DNA from: Candidatus Nanohaloarchaea archaeon
Lineage (GTDB): Archaea; Nanohalarchaeota; Nanosalinia; Nanosalinales; Nanosalinaceae
Direction of reading: 5' to 3'
Length of the DNA stretch: 64,000 bases
NCBI GenBank assembly: GCA_042218325.1
Contig: JBDGRE010000001.1
Location: forward strand, 100,356 to 164,355
Positions 468 through 25,501 of this stretch are shown here, in pieces. The first letter of the stretch is position 1; every line of letters begins with the position of its first letter. Below the pieces are notes generated by a model. That model saw only the letters and a program-made list of their open reading frames with translations, did not search any database and was not told where the DNA came from. The position numbers were made by a program, and so were the translations under genes.

Positions 468-1185
468 GCTTCTGAAGATTTACTTCATGAACAAGCTGCG
501 CCGACCTTTAACCGTGGCTATGTCGCTTCTCTGGGCGCTGGCGTTCTTCGTTTTCCTTTACTTCGTCTTCGAGACAGGCGGCCTCAGCTTCGGGAAAGAA
601 GGCTTCTCGAACTCTTTCGTCGCCTCATACCTCGTCTTCGTACCCGCGTACATAGGCGTATTCGGGGTCCTCCATGGTGTGCTTGAGGACAGCGATTCGG
701 GGCTGCTCAAGGCGTACCGGGGCACACGGATGGAGAAGTACGAGTACTTCACCGCCAAGATCGCCGCTTCCTCAGTCTCCGGCCTCGCGGTCGCGGCGCT
801 CATACTCGGCCTGGCATCGTACCTCTCCCCGGTAACGGTCAGCCTTCCACTCGCCTTCATGGCTGTGCTCGCCACGGTTGTCGCTCATTCCGGCATCGCT
901 CTCGTAACCGCGTCACTGTCGAAGGATACGCAGGAATCCCGGATGGTGGTGCAGACATTCGTGATAGTACTCATCGCCGGCACACCTGTTTTCTACCCGG
1001 AGACTCTTCTTCCCGGGTCTGTGAGGATATTGCAGCAGCTGATACCACTGACGCACAGCATAGAGCTTTCAAGGGCGCTGGTGCAGCAGCAGGCGACAGC
1101 AGGATTCATAATCGAGAAAACAGCGGTGCTCGTAGGCTTCTCAGCGGTCCTGATAGGCGCCGCCTATCGAAGGTTCGATTTCTAG
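451..1185 (+). CDS. ABC-2 type exporter permease
   Basis: About 6 hydrophobic segments; PVFYPETLLP...LIPLTHSIELSR motif typical of ABC-2 permeases; ATG at 451. Confidence 0.85.
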   Translation: MRKVAELLKIYFMNKLRRPLTVAMSLLWALAFFVFLYFVFETGGLSFGKEGFSNSFVASYLVFVPAYIGVFGVLHGVLEDSDSGLLKAYRGTRMEKYEYFTAKIAASSVSGLAVAALILGLASYLSPVTVSLPLAFMAVLATVVAHSGIALVTASLSKDTQESRMVVQTFVIVLIAGTPVFYPETLLPGSVRILQQLIPLTHSIELSRALVQQQATAGFIIEKTAVLVGFSAVLIGAAYRRFDF

Positions 1186-4028
1186 CCCTTGATGTTCGCG
1201 ACCGGCTTCATCCTCGCGACCTTCTTCCCGATACCCAGTTCGTCGCTTACACGGATGACCTCGTCCACGTCCTTGTAGGCGCCGGGCGCCTCCTCCGCGA
1301 CGGTCTCTCCCGAGGCCGCTCGGACGTAGACACCGTCACGCTCCAGCTCTTTCTGCAGCCGCTCGCCGCGGTAATCCTTCTTGGCCTGTGTCCGCGACTT
1401 GAGTCTTCCCGCGCCGTGGGCGGTCGACCCGAACGATAGCTCCAGTGATTTCTCGCCACCGGAAAGTATGTAGGATGAGGTGCCCATCGTTCCCGGCAGC
1501 AGAACCGGCTGTCCCACGCTGCTGTACGCCTCGGGAACCTCCTCGCGGCCGGCCGGCATCGCCCGGGTCGCTCCCTTCCGGTGCACGAGAACTTCTTTCT
1601 TCTCTCCATCGACAGTATGGGTCTCCTGCTTGGCGATGTTGTGGCAGACATCGTAGACGAGGTCGACCTGCGTATCGTCGAACAGCAGGCCCAGCGCCTC
1701 GCGAATGGCCTCGGTCATGGCCTGCCTGTTGGCCCAGGCGAAGTTGGCGGCGGCGTTCATCGCGTCCCAGTAGTCCTGCGCCAGCTCGTCTCCTATAGGC
1801 GCGTATATCAGCTCCTTGTCCGGTATCTCCTCGACTATCTCCGGGTACTCCTTCTCGAACTTTCTCAGGTACTCCGTGCATGTTTGATGTCCGAGCCCGC
1901 GGGAGCCCGAGTGTATCATTATGACGACCTGGTCTTCCTGCAGGCCGTAAGCTTCGGCCCTGTCCTCGTCGTACAGCTCCGCGACCCTCTGCACCTCGAG
2001 GAAGTGGTTGCCGCTTCCCAGCGAGCCGACCTGGTTTACGCCGCGCTTGATGGCATCCTGCGGCACCTTTTCCGGGTCCCCGGGAAGTTTCCCGTTCTCC
2101 TCGCAGTGCTCCAGATCAGCTTTTCGGGCGTGACCGTTCTCCAGCATCCACTCCATGCCTTTCTCAAGTATCTCTCGCAGGTCTTCCTCGTCGGTATCGA
2201 TGTAGCCTCCGCCGCCGAGACCGCAGGGGACTTTATCGTACAGCAGGTTCGCCAGCTGCTTCTCCCGGCCCTTCACGTCGCTGTACTCGAGATTCGTTCT
2301 CAGTACGCGGACGCCGCAGTTGGAGACGACAAACTGGTCAGCGATGAAGTTGTGTTTTTCATGTCTTACACCTATGTCGTATACAGTCTCGGTTCCTTTC
2401 TCATCGATGGATTTTATAGTCGATTTTACTGTGAGATTGTCCTTGACTTCCAGGTCTCTTCTGTATTCCTCATAACTCGGAAAGCTCTTCGGAGGTCGAG
2501 AAATGGTTTTCCTTCCGCTGTAGATCCTTCTCTCGATGAACCTTTCGTTTATTTCGAACTTCTGCTTGATTTCCTGAGGTTGGGTTCCATTTTTGTAGAG
2601 CTGGACGCATTTTTCGGCTATCCTTTCTCTCTGTTCGATTGCTTTCTGCTTGGTCTTTAGGTACTGGATGGCCTTGACGGCTTTCTTTCTTTTTTCGAGG
2701 TTGTATCTGTAGCCGACTTCGGAGAGGAATTTGATTAGATTCTCGCTGTTGTTCTTTATACCGAGCCGGAACCTGGTTACCTCTCCGTCTTCGTTTTCCT
2801 CGGTCTTCATGCTTTCTATCTGGTTGGTATCGATCTCCAGTCTTCCGAGGTAATCCCTGATTTCCTGCATGAACTTTCTGCCTGATTCTCTCTTCTCGCT
2901 TGCCTTGTTCTGTGATATCTTCGGACAGTAGAAGTTTTTGTCGTGCTGTGCTTTCGGCGAACTCATCTCTGCGCCGAAGAAGGCGGAAAGGTACAGGGCC
3001 AGCTGCCAGTCCTCAACTCTCGACAGATATCTGGGTGTAGTGAACTCTTCCTGAGTCTTCTTGCCCTCAGGTGTTCCGAGCTTCATGAGCAGTTTCTTGA
3101 ACGCCCTGGAGGTTGACTTTACGCTGTGTTCAGTTCTCTCAAACTGACTTCCTTTGTGGTTATGCTCCCTTTCTCTTGAGTAGATTTTTGACGGTTTGAA
3201 GCCTAGTTCCTTGATATCATCTCTGATTTTTTCCAGATCTTCTGGTTCTGCATAGAACCACGTGTCGCCTGAGTTATTGACGGATCCATCGCCGGTATGG
3301 AACCCTGCAAGTTTCAGGAGGATGTTGAACTCTCTGTCGGTTGATTTCAGGGGTAGAAGGTCTCTTTCCTTTAGAGCTTGTACCAGTAGCTTGTTTTCTT
3401 CTATGAAATCCTCCTCCGACAGAACTGTGAACTCTTCTGGTTCCGAGTTCTCGATTCCTCTGAAAGGTCTGAGATAAATCTGTGATCCTTCTGAAAGACT
3501 GTCGAGTTCTACCATTCCTTCGTCCGTCAGGAAAGGATGGTCTCTCGTCGCGGTTATTTTCTCGCCTGTCTCGGTTTCCACCTCAAGGACCTTTCGGCCT
3601 TCTTTCTCTGTAAGAATTTGTATATCCGATTTTGCTGTTTTGCTCCCCGCTACAACTGCGCGATAGTCGTTGAAATCGTCCTTCAGCTCCCCTATTTCTT
3701 TTCTCCTTCCGAACTCCACAAGAACTTCGGAATCTCCGGATAAGCAGTTGATGTCGTAGCCGATACCGCCCGGGCTGATGACGCCGTTCTCCATGTCGAC
3801 CGCCGCCACGCCGCCTATCGGGAACCCGTAGCCCTGGTGACCGTCAGGCATCACGATGGAGTGCTCCTGTATGCCAGGCAGGGTCGCGACGTTCTTCACC
3901 TGTTCAAGGGTCTTGTCCTGTTTTATCTCCTCAAGAAGCGACTCCGAGGCGTATATCCTCGCCGGGACATTCATGTCCCCCTCTTTTTCTATCTCGTATA
4001 CGTTCTCGGAAACTTTCTGTGGTTCCAT
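1182..4028 (-). CDS. rtcB: tRNA-splicing ligase RtcB, intein-containing
   Basis: MPDGHQGYGFPIGG, GYDIN|CG, GSLGSGNHFLE, HSGSRG, HRKGAT and HGAGR motifs; 476-aa insertion between N and the catalytic C. Confidence 0.97.
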   Translation of the reverse strand: MEPQKVSENVYEIEKEGDMNVPARIYASESLLEEIKQDKTLEQVKNVATLPGIQEHSIVMPDGHQGYGFPIGGVAAVDMENGVISPGGIGYDINCLSGDSEVLVEFGRRKEIGELKDDFNDYRAVVAGSKTAKSDIQILTEKEGRKVLEVETETGEKITATRDHPFLTDEGMVELDSLSEGSQIYLRPFRGIENSEPEEFTVLSEEDFIEENKLLVQALKERDLLPLKSTDREFNILLKLAGFHTGDGSVNNSGDTWFYAEPEDLEKIRDDIKELGFKPSKIYSREREHNHKGSQFERTEHSVKSTSRAFKKLLMKLGTPEGKKTQEEFTTPRYLSRVEDWQLALYLSAFFGAEMSSPKAQHDKNFYCPKISQNKASEKRESGRKFMQEIRDYLGRLEIDTNQIESMKTEENEDGEVTRFRLGIKNNSENLIKFLSEVGYRYNLEKRKKAVKAIQYLKTKQKAIEQRERIAEKCVQLYKNGTQPQEIKQKFEINERFIERRIYSGRKTISRPPKSFPSYEEYRRDLEVKDNLTVKSTIKSIDEKGTETVYDIGVRHEKHNFIADQFVVSNCGVRVLRTNLEYSDVKGREKQLANLLYDKVPCGLGGGGYIDTDEEDLREILEKGMEWMLENGHARKADLEHCEENGKLPGDPEKVPQDAIKRGVNQVGSLGSGNHFLEVQRVAELYDEDRAEAYGLQEDQVVIMIHSGSRGLGHQTCTEYLRKFEKEYPEIVEEIPDKELIYAPIGDELAQDYWDAMNAAANFAWANRQAMTEAIREALGLLFDDTQVDLVYDVCHNIAKQETHTVDGEKKEVLVHRKGATRAMPAGREEVPEAYSSVGQPVLLPGTMGTSSYILSGGEKSLELSFGSTAHGAGRLKSRTQAKKDYRGERLQKELERDGVYVRAASGETVAEEAPGAYKDVDEVIRVSDELGIGKKVARMKPVANIKG
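2319..3746 (-). mobile_element. Intein with LAGLIDADG homing endonuclease in RtcB (476 aa)
   Basis: Starts CLSGDSEV; block B TRDHPF; LAGFHTGDG and YLSAFFGAE motifs; block F VYDIGV; ends VVSN followed by +1 Cys; visibly AT-richer than the exteins. Confidence 0.95.
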
Positions 4029-5477: not shown

Positions 5478-5585
5478 GTTTTAGCGGCCTTCTTCCTCCT
5501 CTATCCATTCGGGTTCCGGCAGCGGCATATGCATCAGAGCGGTGTGGAAAGTGTTAAGCAGAACTGTAAGCGACCGCAAGGAAAG

Positions 5586-5748
5586 CGCCGGGGCTGGGAT
5601 TTGAACCCAGGAGGGCCGGTATGGCCCACCAGCTGGCTGGGTCGAAGCCGGCCTCGGGGATGAGGCGTCTTCTCCAACCTCCAACCCTCCGAGTTCGGGT
5701 AGAAGGTTTTCCAGGCTGGCACGTTCGTCCAGACTCCGTCACCCCGGC
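5586..5748 (-). tRNA. tRNA-Ser(GGA) with 74-nt intron at 37/38 (intron 5635-5708)
   Basis: Acceptor GCCGGGG/CCCCGGC, G73, anticodon stem CCAGC/GCTGG, CT-GGA-A, long variable arm, T-arm CTGGG-TTCAAAT-CCCAG; CTGG/CCAG helix and CC|A bulge at the 3' splice site. Confidence 0.93.
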
Positions 5749-7023: not shown

Positions 7024-7893
7024 ATGTTAGTCTTGATGAGTACTGACACGGGAAGTAAGGAGGCGCCAGCGGACGAAGAGGAACTGGTCGATTTTATGAG
7101 ACGGCTTGATATAGAGCAGGAACCTGTTACAGGGGGCGCCCTGGTCGGCAGTTCTGGCGGTGATAGACCTGCGCGCACCATCGAGGCTGATTCCACGGAT
7201 TTCAGGGCAGTCGTTGACAACCTCGACCGCATAGACAGCGGAACGGTAGAGAAGATGCTCTACCACTTCAGGGGTTACTCTGGTGGCACTGATTACGCTG
7301 TTTTCCTGCCCGATGAGGTATCGGACAGGGTGTTAGGAGATGATGAGTTCGATCTACCGTTCATCTCGGCTGTAGAGGGGAGAGGTGTCTTGCTCGGTCG
7401 TGCGCGTGACCCGGCCCAGCTGCAGGGCTTACTTGCAGGGAACAATTTTGATGAGGTCTACGACTACATAGAGTCGGAGGTCTTCGATGAAGGCATGCTT
7501 TTGTTCGTCCCGGGCGGGCAGAAGGGCTTGGAGGAGGCTCCTTGGGCTGGCAGGCGGGCCTACATGTTGAACCATCCGTATTCGGTTATGTCCTCGATGG
7601 AGAACGTAAAACAGGACGCGGGAGAAGCCCGTGGCGCAGAATGGCTTGGTCCGGAGGCCCGGGAATCCGAGTTCGAGGCCGACGGTTCAAGGATAGTGAA
7701 GACGGTCGAGTTCTACCCTGGTGCGGACTACGACAGGGTAAAGGCCCGCGACCGCACCAGCGGGGTGAAAGTCTACGGTGACGGCGAGCATATCGCCATG
7801 TACGACGGTTTCGATCTCATAGGGAGCCGGCGCGAGAGGGAAAGAATCGGGGATGAACCGGTGTTCTTCGAGATGGAGAAGGAACAGGAATAA
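7024..7893 (+). CDS. Hypothetical acidic protein
   Basis: 289-aa acidic ORF with TATA-like element upstream; start may be ATG 7036. Confidence 0.65.
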   Translation: MLVLMSTDTGSKEAPADEEELVDFMRRLDIEQEPVTGGALVGSSGGDRPARTIEADSTDFRAVVDNLDRIDSGTVEKMLYHFRGYSGGTDYAVFLPDEVSDRVLGDDEFDLPFISAVEGRGVLLGRARDPAQLQGLLAGNNFDEVYDYIESEVFDEGMLLFVPGGQKGLEEAPWAGRRAYMLNHPYSVMSSMENVKQDAGEARGAEWLGPEARESEFEADGSRIVKTVEFYPGADYDRVKARDRTSGVKVYGDGEHIAMYDGFDLIGSRRERERIGDEPVFFEMEKEQE

Positions 7894-7920
7894 TAACTGT
7901 TGGCGGCCCACGATACTCCT

Positions 7921-8583
7921 ATGACAAAGATTCTCGGTATCGATGAGGCGGGAAGAGGGCCGGTCATAGGTTCGATGTTCGTCGGCGGCTTCCTTTTCGA
8001 GGAGGACAGGACCGGGGAACTCGAGGATCTCGGTGTCAAGGACTCGAAGAAACTGTCGGACAGGCGCCGGGACATGATGGATGAGAAGCTGGAGAGCATA
8101 GGCGAGACCTTTCTTAAGGAGGCGACCGCGAGCACCATCGACGAGCTACGGGAGGTCATGACGCTGAACGAGATCGAGGTCCAGGCGTTTTCCGAGGTCA
8201 TAGCGATGTCGGACGCTGACCGGGTCATAGTCGACCTGCCCGAGCCGAACGCGGAGCGCTTCATACGCAAGCTAAAGGACCAGCTGCCGCCACGGTTTGA
8301 GGACGTGGAGTTCGTCGCGGAGCACGGGGCTGACGACGAGTACCCTGTTGTGTCCGCGGCCTCCATACTCGCGAAGAGCGCCCGTGAGCGCCACGTCAGA
8401 GAGCTGAAGGAGAAGTACGGCTTCGACTTCAAGTCAGGTTACCCGCACGACGAAGAGGTCATCGATTTCATGGACCACTACCTCGACGAATACGGCGAGC
8501 TGCCGGACGAGATCAGGCGGTCTTGGAGCACGGCCCAGCGTGTCCTGAAAGAGCATGGCCAGGAAGGCCTCGACGACTTCTGA
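7921..8583 (+). CDS. rnhB: Ribonuclease HII
   Basis: GIDEAGRGPVIG, VKDSKKL, VSAASILAK, SGYP, RRSWST. Confidence 0.96.
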   Translation: MTKILGIDEAGRGPVIGSMFVGGFLFEEDRTGELEDLGVKDSKKLSDRRRDMMDEKLESIGETFLKEATASTIDELREVMTLNEIEVQAFSEVIAMSDADRVIVDLPEPNAERFIRKLKDQLPPRFEDVEFVAEHGADDEYPVVSAASILAKSARERHVRELKEKYGFDFKSGYPHDEEVIDFMDHYLDEYGELPDEIRRSWSTAQRVLKEHGQEGLDDF

Positions 8584-8664: not shown

Positions 8665-9213
8665 ATGATTGCAGCAAAGCTGGCCGAGTCCCGCGTCCGT
8701 ATCACGGATGAGGATGGCGCGAAGGAAGTCTACAGCGACTACTACTACGGCAAGTTCCAGTGCGACGAGGAAGAGGTGCTGGAGCTGTCGCTGTCCGAGG
8801 CCATGCATCTTGTCGACCGCGACGTGATAGAGGTCGAGGGCGCCTCGGGAGAAACCTTCTCGCGGGAAGAGCTTCACGACCGGTTCGTGGAGCTGGACGA
8901 CGAGTTCTCGCACAAGTACAAGGTTTACAGGGACCTGCGAGAGCGGGGCTACATCGTGAAGAGCGGGTTCAAGTTTGGCTCACATTTCCGCGTCTACGAG
9001 GAGGGCGTCAACCCGTACAGCGAGGGACCGAAGCGGCAGAAGCAGCACACCAAGTGGGTGGTGCACGCTGTTCCCGAGAACCACACACTCAGCTTCCAGG
9101 AGATGTCCCGCGCCGTAAGGCTGGCCCACAACATCCGCGCTACGATGCTCTGGGGCGTCGTCGACTCGGAGGGTGGCGTGACCTACTACGAGGTCGAACG
9201 GGCGAAGCCCTGA
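8665..9213 (+). CDS. endA: tRNA-intron endonuclease, single-unit alpha type (atypical active site)
   Basis: LSLSEAMHL, YKVYRDLRERGYIVKSGFKFGSHFRVY, VRLAHNIR, VDSEGGVTYY. Confidence 0.92.
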   Translation: MIAAKLAESRVRITDEDGAKEVYSDYYYGKFQCDEEEVLELSLSEAMHLVDRDVIEVEGASGETFSREELHDRFVELDDEFSHKYKVYRDLRERGYIVKSGFKFGSHFRVYEEGVNPYSEGPKRQKQHTKWVVHAVPENHTLSFQEMSRAVRLAHNIRATMLWGVVDSEGGVTYYEVERAKP

Positions 9214-9214
9214 A

Positions 9215-9577
9215 TCATCTCAGAGGATTTCTTCCAACTCTGCTAGGATCCATGTAATCGGGAAGGACTGAGATAGACAGCATGTATCTACCTGGTCCTT
9301 CGCGCGGTTCTTCTGACCGTGTTTGTAGTTCTGCCTCACCGCCTTCTGGGTTGCCGAACTGTAGATAGCCTGTCCCCGAATAACCGGTTTCAGGTATTCG
9401 GAATGAGGCTGGAGCTCTGGACAGCATATTTACTCCTTCGGTCTCTGTACGGCCTTCCAGAATTTCAAATGCCCGGTCTTCGTCAAGTATCACCTCTTCC
9501 GGACCTTCGTTCTTTCTTTCCACGCTGTAGAAACGGGTTGAAAGGTTTCTCTCAGAGAGTTCGATTACCATCACCAC
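9215..9577 (-). CDS. Hypothetical protein (120 aa)
   Basis: Acidic ORF with its own TATA-like element near 9590; lower GC than neighbours. Confidence 0.5.
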   Translation of the reverse strand: MVMVIELSERNLSTRFYSVERKNEGPEEVILDEDRAFEILEGRTETEGVNMLSRAPASFRIPETGYSGTGYLQFGNPEGGEAELQTRSEEPREGPGRYMLSISVLPDYMDPSRVGRNPLR

Positions 9578-9604: not shown

Positions 9605-10525
9605 TCAGTACCCGAGGAGGTCAAGTACTCCTGTCGACGGTGAGTGTCTCTCCCGCAGCTTCCTCCCGTACCAGACACCTACCACGAGGCCGGTGAGGTG
9701 GGCTGATGGGGCCGAGATCCCGATGAGGGGTATCGAGTAGCCGAGCAGCTTGGTCAGCAGGTTGATGCCTTCCATAACCGCGAACAGCCTGAGTGCGGTC
9801 TGTATCTTCATCGGGATGAAGAAGTACAGCAGGACCTCCGCGTCCGGGTAGAACATGGCGACAGCGGCGAAGACCGCCACGACTGCACCGGAGGCTCCTA
9901 CAGCCGGGCTCAGGACTGTGAGGGCGCCGGGACTGCAGCCTGAGGTGAGGCAGGCTAGGCCCGAGGGATTAAGAAATGCTATAAGGTTCTGGAGTACGAT
10001 GAAACCGATGCTCGCGACGACGCCGGAGCCGACATATAACTTGAATAGGCCCTGCGTGCCAATTATCCTCTCGAGCGGGGTGCCGAAGAAGTAGAAGGTC
10101 ACCATGTTGGCGAAGATGTGGAAAAGCCCGCCGTGGACCAGCATCACGGTGATTATCGACCAGGGCCGCTGCACCAGCTCGCCGACGGCAGGGTCGAGGA
10201 GCATCATCTCCGTGAAGCCGGGAACCATCTGCAGGAGGAACGCGAATACTGTAACTGTTATTATCGATAGCGTGGCGCTGTTCGTGAAGGTCGAGATTAT
10301 GTCCCGTGCCATCGATGGTTTCCGGGGTTCGGAGGGCTTCACCTCGTTCCTGACTTCTTTCTCCTGGAACCATTTGCCCTGCTGTTCTCTCTTCTTCTCC
10401 ACTTCCTCGTCGAGTTTCTCGCAGTCGTGGTTCTCGGGCAGCCGGTGCTCGGCGCAGTATTTCTTGCCGCAGTACCTGCATGTGAAGGACATCGAGTCCT
10501 TGCCGCACTCGGAGCACTCGGCCAT
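9605..10525 (-). CDS. Rhomboid intramembrane serine protease with N-terminal AN1-type zinc finger
   Basis: CSEC...CRYC...CAEHRLPENHDC; HIFANM, GASGA (catalytic Ser) and AHLTG (catalytic His). Confidence 0.92.
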   Translation of the reverse strand: MAECSECGKDSMSFTCRYCGKKYCAEHRLPENHDCEKLDEEVEKKREQQGKWFQEKEVRNEVKPSEPRKPSMARDIISTFTNSATLSIITVTVFAFLLQMVPGFTEMMLLDPAVGELVQRPWSIITVMLVHGGLFHIFANMVTFYFFGTPLERIIGTQGLFKLYVGSGVVASIGFIVLQNLIAFLNPSGLACLTSGCSPGALTVLSPAVGASGAVVAVFAAVAMFYPDAEVLLYFFIPMKIQTALRLFAVMEGINLLTKLLGYSIPLIGISAPSAHLTGLVVGVWYGRKLRERHSPSTGVLDLLGY

Positions 10526-25369: not shown

Positions 25370-25501
25370 GGGTCCGTGGTCTAGTTGGTTATGACGTCGC
25401 CCTTACAGCTGGCGCACCGCGTGCGGAGCAGCGTTACTTTGACTCACACGCGAGGCGAGTGAGTCAGGCGAAGATCCCCAGTTCGAATCTGGGCGGACCC
25501 A
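25370..25501 (+). tRNA. tRNA-Val(TAC) with 58-nt intron at 37/38 (intron 25408-25465)
   Basis: Acceptor GGGTCCG/CGGACCC, anticodon stem TCGCC/GGCGA, CT-TAC-A, T-arm CCCAG-TTCGAAT-CTGGG; CTTA/TGAG helix with TC|A bulge. Confidence 0.92.

Follow-up and report, generated by a model that had tools for sequence, protein, structure and literature searches.

The endA gene and its surroundings

The window, by which is meant the whole 64,000-nucleotide stretch of DNA analysed here, carries a gene for a single-unit tRNA-splicing endonuclease (EndA) together with a gene for the RNA ligase RtcB and intron-bearing genes for tRNA-Ser and tRNA-Val (Table 1). The RtcB gene lies 4.6 kb upstream of endA and consists of a 948-amino-acid frame in which an intein with a LAGLIDADG homing-endonuclease domain parts two stretches of RtcB sequence. 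Immediately upstream of endA, at a distance of 81 nt and on the same strand, lies a gene for RNase HII (7900-8583, +). This pair is flanked by a frame for a very acidic protein of 289 amino acids (7024-7893, +) and a frame of 120 amino acids (9215-9577, −), neither of which has a Pfam match at E ≤ 0.001. Downstream, the opposite strand carries a gene for a rhomboid protease that bears an AN1 zinc finger at its N terminus (9605-10525, −).

Table 1. Positions, in the numbering of the window, of endA, of its domains and residues, and of the associated RNA ligase and tRNA genes
Feature	Position	Strand	Basis
endA, 182-aa single-unit (α4-type) tRNA-splicing endonuclease	8665..9213, stop codon included	+	Open reading frame with ATG start; Pfam and NCBIfam matches
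EndA N-terminal domain, residues 4-70	8674..8874	+	PF02778, 56.3 bits (cut-off 21)
EndA catalytic C-terminal domain, residues 81-174	8905..9186	+	PF01974, 97.6 bits (cut-off 27)
Tyr111 (TAC) in FRVY, equivalent of the catalytic Tyr	8995..8997	+	Aligned with triad Tyr of five solved EndAs; 120/120 homologs
L3 (NEQ-type) loop (EEGVNPYSEGPKRQKQ), residues 112-127, exceeding that of M. jannaschii by 7 aa	8998..9045	+	Alignments to 1a79 and 3iey_A
Lys123 (AAG) in the GPK motif, His-5, candidate replacement for the triad Lys	9031..9033	+	K in 119/120 homologs
His128 (CAC) in KQH, equivalent of the catalytic His	9046..9048	+	Aligned with triad His of five solved EndAs; 120/120 homologs
Arg152, site minus 7, the offset of the substrate-clamping Arg	9118..9120	+	Kept in 120/120 homologs; putative match by offset
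Arg158, beside the vacant site, second candidate substitute	9136..9138	+	R in 119/120 homologs
Ala159 (GCT) in AHNIRA, at the canonical triad Lys position	9139..9141	+	phmmer alignments to solved EndAs
RtcB RNA ligase gene with intein, ligation partner in the splicing pathway	1182..4028	−	PF01139, 537.7 bits in two stretches; Intein_splicing, LAGLIDADG_3
tRNA-Ser(GGA) with 74-nt intron (5635-5708) at 37/38, likely substrate	5585..5748	−	aragorn -i; 4/4 central helix, 5-bp outer helix; fold
tRNA-Val(TAC) with 58-nt intron (25408-25465) at 37/38, likely substrate	25370..25501	+	aragorn -i; 4/4 central helix, 5-bp outer helix; fold

Judged by the names of homologs, the organism belongs to the Nanohaloarchaeota. 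The assignment of the 182-residue protein to EndA is supported at the level of sequence and of fold. In addition to the two Pfam domains, the protein matches the endA family TIGR00324 with 106.1 bits against a cut-off of 59.6. An AlphaFold2 model computed from a 60-sequence alignment has a mean pLDDT of 94.2, with values of about 89 in the loop region discussed below, and the top Foldseek matches of this model are all EndA/TSEN chains. The best of them is the Methanocaldococcus jannaschii enzyme (1a79_A; E = 1.4e-17, TM 0.85/0.90, rmsd 2.3 Å, 35% identity). The best explanation of the gene is that it encodes the organism's sole endonuclease for splicing at bulge-helix-bulge (BHB) motifs of tRNA and rRNA, the archaeal EndA or tRNA-intron lyase.

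The initial annotation had allowed for the case in which a second EndA with a full triad exists and the present one is only structural; no such second EndA was found, either here or in the remaining 69 genomes of the phylum, among them eight single-contig assemblies with one copy each. In the assembly, which comprises 1.07 Mb in 35 contigs and is 96% complete, so that a further gene might lie outside it, a search with PF01974 gave a single match at E ≤ 10, endA itself, and an unfiltered search (--max) of 14,787 six-frame open reading frames with three profiles likewise recovered endA alone, the next match having an E value of 0.65. Across the phylum, 67 of 70 genomes hold a match over the cut-off. 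Two of them (G061 and G069) hold two strong matches, which are in each case near-identical copies lacking the triad Lys; in G061, another nanohaloarchaeal genome, the copies lie 4.4 kb apart (C1:5089-9809, locus L116) and may have arisen by recent duplication or represent an assembly repeat. Weak PF01974 matches (E ~0.1) to frames of about 250 amino acids in 13 phylum genomes were rejected as chance similarities and read as Nop5/Nop56. This identity was assigned by reading of the sequences rather than by a family scan, and the three frames inspected each lie directly upstream of a gene for a fibrillarin-like methyltransferase.

A single gene of about 180 codons that encodes both domains, with no further EndA-like gene in the genome or in 70 phylum genomes, places the enzyme in the α4 subtype. 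Its most likely assembly would be a homotetramer like that of M. jannaschii EndA. In the 120 homologs described below, the acidic loop with D167/E169 and the strand at the C terminus are conserved, which for the tetramer contacts (β9-β9' and the L10 pocket) is only suggestive.

The vacant lysine site and the Tyr-to-His loop

Alignment of the protein with five solved EndAs showed that the catalytic Tyr and His are present and that the canonical Lys is missing, as the initial annotation had claimed. Ala159 aligns with the Lys of AHSVRK in the enzymes of M. jannaschii (1a79), Methanopyrus kandleri (5x89) and ARMAN-2 (4fz2), of AHSTRK in Nanoarchaeum equitans (3iey_A) and of AQNVRK in Archaeoglobus fulgidus (1r0v), and in no alignment does a Lys fall at the canonical site. 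The spacing is equally conserved, since position 31 after His128 is Ala159 and the same interval separates H125 from K156 in M. jannaschii EndA (numbering as given in PMC2761253). The GCT codon of Ala159 differs from AAA and AAG in all three bases, which bears out the earlier remark that it is not one base from a Lys codon. Among the best 120 short homologs, which are 59-100% identical to the query, the column of the triad Lys contains Ala in 114, Ser in 4, Thr in 1 and Val in 1. The Lys that counts among the membership features of EndA is thus absent from the query and from all 120. That the vacated site holds only these small residues is as expected if another side chain occupies the space. 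Arg152 stands seven positions before the site, the offset at which a substrate-clamping Arg precedes the Lys in the pairs described for ARMAN-2 (R275 and K282) and M. kandleri (R327 and K334; PMC3488258, PMC5829648), and may be its counterpart.

The loop between Tyr111 and His128 has 16 residues, compared with nine in 1a79, and can be aligned over its length with the corresponding loop of N. equitans EndA. It contains the basic residues K123, R124 and K126, while N116, P117, Y118 and G121 vary little or not at all among the 120 homologs. A basic Tyr-to-His loop about seven residues longer than usual had been noted and is indeed present; its presentation as a new insertion tied to the loss of Lys did not stand. 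The loop is already known, since PMC3488258 and PMC5829648 describe it as the N. equitans-specific or L3 loop. According to Hirata 2012 (PMC3488258), residues 240-247 of ARMAN-2 EndA form an insertion that superposes on the specific loop 90-98 of N. equitans and lies close to the triad, with the catalytic His within the loop, and the basic residues K93, K94, K96 and R97 of N. equitans are expected to have a role in broad specificity. Kaneta 2018 (PMC5829648) renamed the loop L3, reported it in α4-type EndAs from several lineages of DPANN archaea and associated it with a larger number of disrupted tRNA genes; that survey included Nanohaloarchaea archaeon SG9, and the EndA of SG9 is one of the homologs collected here (P0041; L112). 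The loop also occurs in enzymes that retain the triad Lys, namely those of N. equitans and of three homologs (P0317, P0310 and P0371), and is older than the loss of Lys. The lysines that the initial annotation named as a parallel, those of the CSL and ASL, sit in a different, N-terminal loop (L1/L2).

Two basic residues come into question as substitutes for the missing side chain. The Lys at His-5 is present in 172 of 176 Lys-less units with a long loop, and in the query it aligns with R97 in the KKGKR stretch of N. equitans; the three representatives with an N. equitans-type long loop that keep the canonical Lys all have Arg at this loop position. This pattern, Ala at the site with Lys in the loop as against Lys at the site with Arg in the loop, is not statistical evidence, because it reflects one or two evolutionary events only. 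Moreover, the L3 loop has a function of its own, since Arg is found there in Lys-bearing enzymes and the ARMAN-2 loop mutants K241A and K244A are active, whereas Y236A, H251A and K282A remove no intron (PMC3488258). The second residue is Arg158, whose position is occupied by Arg in 177 of 182 Lys-less units and in 235 of 307 Lys-bearing ones. Six Lys-less units have a short loop; three of them (P0276, P0395 and L107) have Lys at His-5 and three (P0363, P0396 and P0397) do not. Together with one nanohaloarchaeal protein that has no counterpart of K123 (P0024), these units indicate that no single substitute fits every case.

Distribution of the trait and the RNA substrates

The absence of the triad Lys extends well beyond this genome. 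In all 30 loci drawn from other genomes of its phylum, Tyr and His are combined with a residue other than Lys (Ala in 29, Thr in one). Of 80 loci from named genomes, 70 lack the triad Lys, among them all 28 titled as Aenigmatarchaeota and all 12 titled as nanohaloarchaeal; the ten that bear it come from Hadarchaeota/Hadesarchaea, a metagenome-assembled genome titled Hodarchaeaceae, Hydrothermarchaeota, Pyrohabitans and one untitled metagenome-assembled genome, and have short loops throughout. Homologs of the two-repeat (α'2) type carry the Lys in 119 of 120 cases, the exception (P0225) having a NIRA motif and the same loop. A homolog titled as Diapherotrites (P0394) clusters with P0276, which has Thr at the site and a short loop. 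In a FastTree phylogeny of 217 distinct catalytic units, from which the motif columns of the trait and the loop had been left out, 78 of 80 Lys-less units fall into one clade with a support of 97, and the trait changes three times.

These counts and the single clade argue that the loss of Lys is old, essentially single and maintained. Judged from sequence, the absence of Lys is a lineage trait and not an error, and the best explanation is an old monophyletic DPANN lineage, comprising Nanohaloarchaeota and Aenigmatarchaeota, in which the triad Lys has been replaced by Ala and rarely by Ser, Thr or Val. The EndA described here represents a genuine variant of a known enzyme, shared throughout its lineage.

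Other architectures were encountered among metagenomic relatives. Three proteins of 360 amino acids (P0241, P0398 and P0399) are two-repeat EndAs that keep Tyr and His in both repeats; P0241 has Ser at the Lys site of both, and the repeats of P0393, P0398 and P0399 group among the Lys-less units. In such a fusion, each dimer would offer four potential active sites that lack the Lys. Two proteins of about 170 amino acids (P0314 and P0387) are units of the NIRA/NIRT type that lack the catalytic His as well, and probably act as the structural partner where the Lys-less lineage uses two genes.

The genome offers such an enzyme many candidate substrates. A whole-genome search with aragorn -i predicted 43 tRNA genes, 26 of them with introns; about half of the genes have an intron at 37/38, with lengths of 12-143 nt. 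Among the 25 introns of up to 300 nt, 22 adjoin a 5-bp anticodon stem at position 37/38, the candidate BHB register, and 17 combine this register with a fully paired central helix (4/4) and an outer helix of 5 bp; in 200 shuffles of the introns, such full helices averaged 0.6 and never exceeded 4. The intron-bearing set includes the only predicted genes for tRNA-Trp, tRNA-Asn, tRNA-Phe and tRNA-Val. On a strict count the inner helix of the candidates often has 0-2 bp, so that relaxed BHB motifs may be frequent among them. The initial annotation had called the Ser and Val introns of the window atypical; in placement they are not, as both lie at the canonical 37/38 position, with a 4/4 central helix and a 5-bp outer one.

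tRNA scans that ignore introns misidentify genes in this genome. ARAGORN at its default settings reports a 101-nt "tRNA-Arg(tcg)" at 5585-5685, where the intron search gives tRNA-Ser(GGA) with its 74-nt intron. On another contig (C31:12115-15101) aragorn predicts a tRNA-Leu(gag) with a 2,886-nt "intron", which may be a false call or an intron carrying an open reading frame.

Given the co-occurrence of RtcB, about 22 tRNA genes with candidate BHB introns and no second EndA, the enzyme is almost certainly active; it would then cleave BHB motifs and leave a 2',3'-cyclic phosphate and a 5'-OH. The sequencing runs listed for the organism, six entries from two studies, are of DNA type and include none of RNA, which has no bearing on expression. 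An inactive EndA would be hard to reconcile with tRNA genes so rich in introns and with the presence of RtcB.

A model for catalysis and its relation to known endonucleases

The data presented above have led us to propose a model in which the sole, α4-like EndA of this organism is active with Tyr111 and His128, and the role of the triad Lys is taken by another basic residue, most likely Lys123. We regard this model as probable, by a modest degree. Tyr111 would serve as the general base and His128 as the general acid, as in other EndAs, while the positive charge that stabilizes the transition state would be supplied from elsewhere than the canonical site. The likeliest source of this charge would be Lys123, which belongs to the conserved GPK motif of the L3 loop beside the active site, and Arg158 would be a less likely one. 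Lys123 is thus the best candidate for the substituting residue, and a rewired active site, as the initial annotation had suggested, is plausible. We also put forward, more tentatively and with somewhat more doubt than belief, that a catalytic residue migrated in the ancestor of Nanohaloarchaeota and Aenigmatarchaeota, from the position of the triad Lys to the Lys of the L3 GPK motif (K123), the old site having shrunk to Ala. If so, a family in which the triad is called conserved from Archaea to humans would contain a distinct architecture of Tyr, His and a loop Lys. Such an architecture may be coupled to a tolerance of introns with relaxed BHB motifs.

Other accounts of the vacant site have to be weighed against this model. 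An artefact, in which the Lys is displaced by a single residue or the Ala results from faulty sequencing, deserves hardly any credence: Lys directly follows the site in 17 of the 120 nanohaloarchaeal homologs, and Lys or Arg is common there in Aenigmatarchaeota loci, but the same position holds Thr in the query and in 82 of the 120, for which reason a Lys displaced to it was rejected. Moreover, the five separate pairwise phmmer alignments are concordant and gap-free around the Lys motif, and the replacement recurs across hundreds of independent assemblies. It is very improbable, if less so than an artefact, that the protein is a structural subunit only, with cleavage left to an unrecognised partner or to an unrelated nuclease. 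Triad-deficient structural subunits are known, such as NEQ261 of N. equitans and the β subunits, and the relatives include units that lack both His and Lys (P0314 and P0387); against this, structural subunits do not keep Tyr and His, which are present in 120 of 120 homologs here, a second homolog is wanting in the genome and in 69 genomes of its phylum, even in the eight of single contigs, and both domains and the acidic D167/E169 loop lie within one chain.

A more serious rival, which we nevertheless hold to be unlikely, is that the enzyme works without any replacement for Lys, by Tyr and His alone and then perhaps more slowly or with the help of a bound cation, or that Arg158 rather than the loop Lys fills the role. 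The stronger constraint on Arg158 in Lys-less than in Lys-bearing units speaks for it, as do the short-loop Lys-less enzymes of the P0276 and P0363 types, the lack of K123 in P0024 and the finding that the loop lysines of ARMAN-2 EndA are dispensable (PMC3488258). However, ARMAN-2 K282A removes no intron from either substrate (PMC3488258), so that plain loss of the Lys is not tolerated in a loop-bearing relative, and such near-invariance as that of K123 and of the NPY/G motif is unusual in surface loops that take no part in catalysis or binding. It was judged unlikely that high intracellular salt serves as the general surrogate for Lys, as a cation drawn from salt would fail to cover the Aenigmatarchaeota loci that share the trait, many of which are titled as groundwater samples.

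In the literature searched, no paper on Lys-less EndAs was found. The triad Lys is described as conserved in the four archaeal types and in Sen2/Sen34 (PMC6379350, PMC10485636), and a lineage spanning two phyla departs from a Tyr/His/Lys triad that is presented as common to the archaeal types and the eukaryotic TSEN2/TSEN34. That a lineage without this Lys manages on one gene, with introns in about half of its tRNA genes, implies that the role of the Lys is movable or less essential than thought, and a sole EndA with Ala in its place, in a genome rich in tRNA introns, must work somewhat differently. Either outcome would refine the accepted mechanism of EndA and would affect the practice of calling EndA/TSEN paralogs "inactive" from their sequences.

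Among characterized and surveyed enzymes, the α4-type EndAs with an L3 loop from DPANN archaea (PMC5829648) form the class to which the present protein belongs; the available text of that survey calls the triad well conserved and makes no mention of a missing Lys. The ε2 enzyme of ARMAN-2 (Ca. Micrarchaeum; 4fz2), which cuts relaxed BHB motifs, has its insertion (residues 240-247) at the corresponding place (PMC3488258). Unlike the protein described here, it is a three-unit fusion, keeps its own K282 and owes its broad specificity to another loop (ASL, K161; PMC3488258). NEQ205 of N. equitans (3iey_A), another DPANN enzyme, shares a basic Tyr-to-His loop of nearly the same length, but it keeps the triad Lys (K133 in AHSTRK) and needs a separate structural subunit, NEQ261, whereas the present EndA is encoded by one gene. 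The closest resemblance is to the α4 enzyme of M. jannaschii (1a79), likewise a single chain of about 180 amino acids with an N-terminal and a catalytic domain, which is the best structural match, aligns at a phmmer E value of 7.8e-28 and has the same Tyr and His with the same spacing of 31 residues from His to the site. It differs in bearing K156 where the nanohaloarchaeal protein has Ala159, and in a Tyr-to-His loop that is shorter by seven residues.
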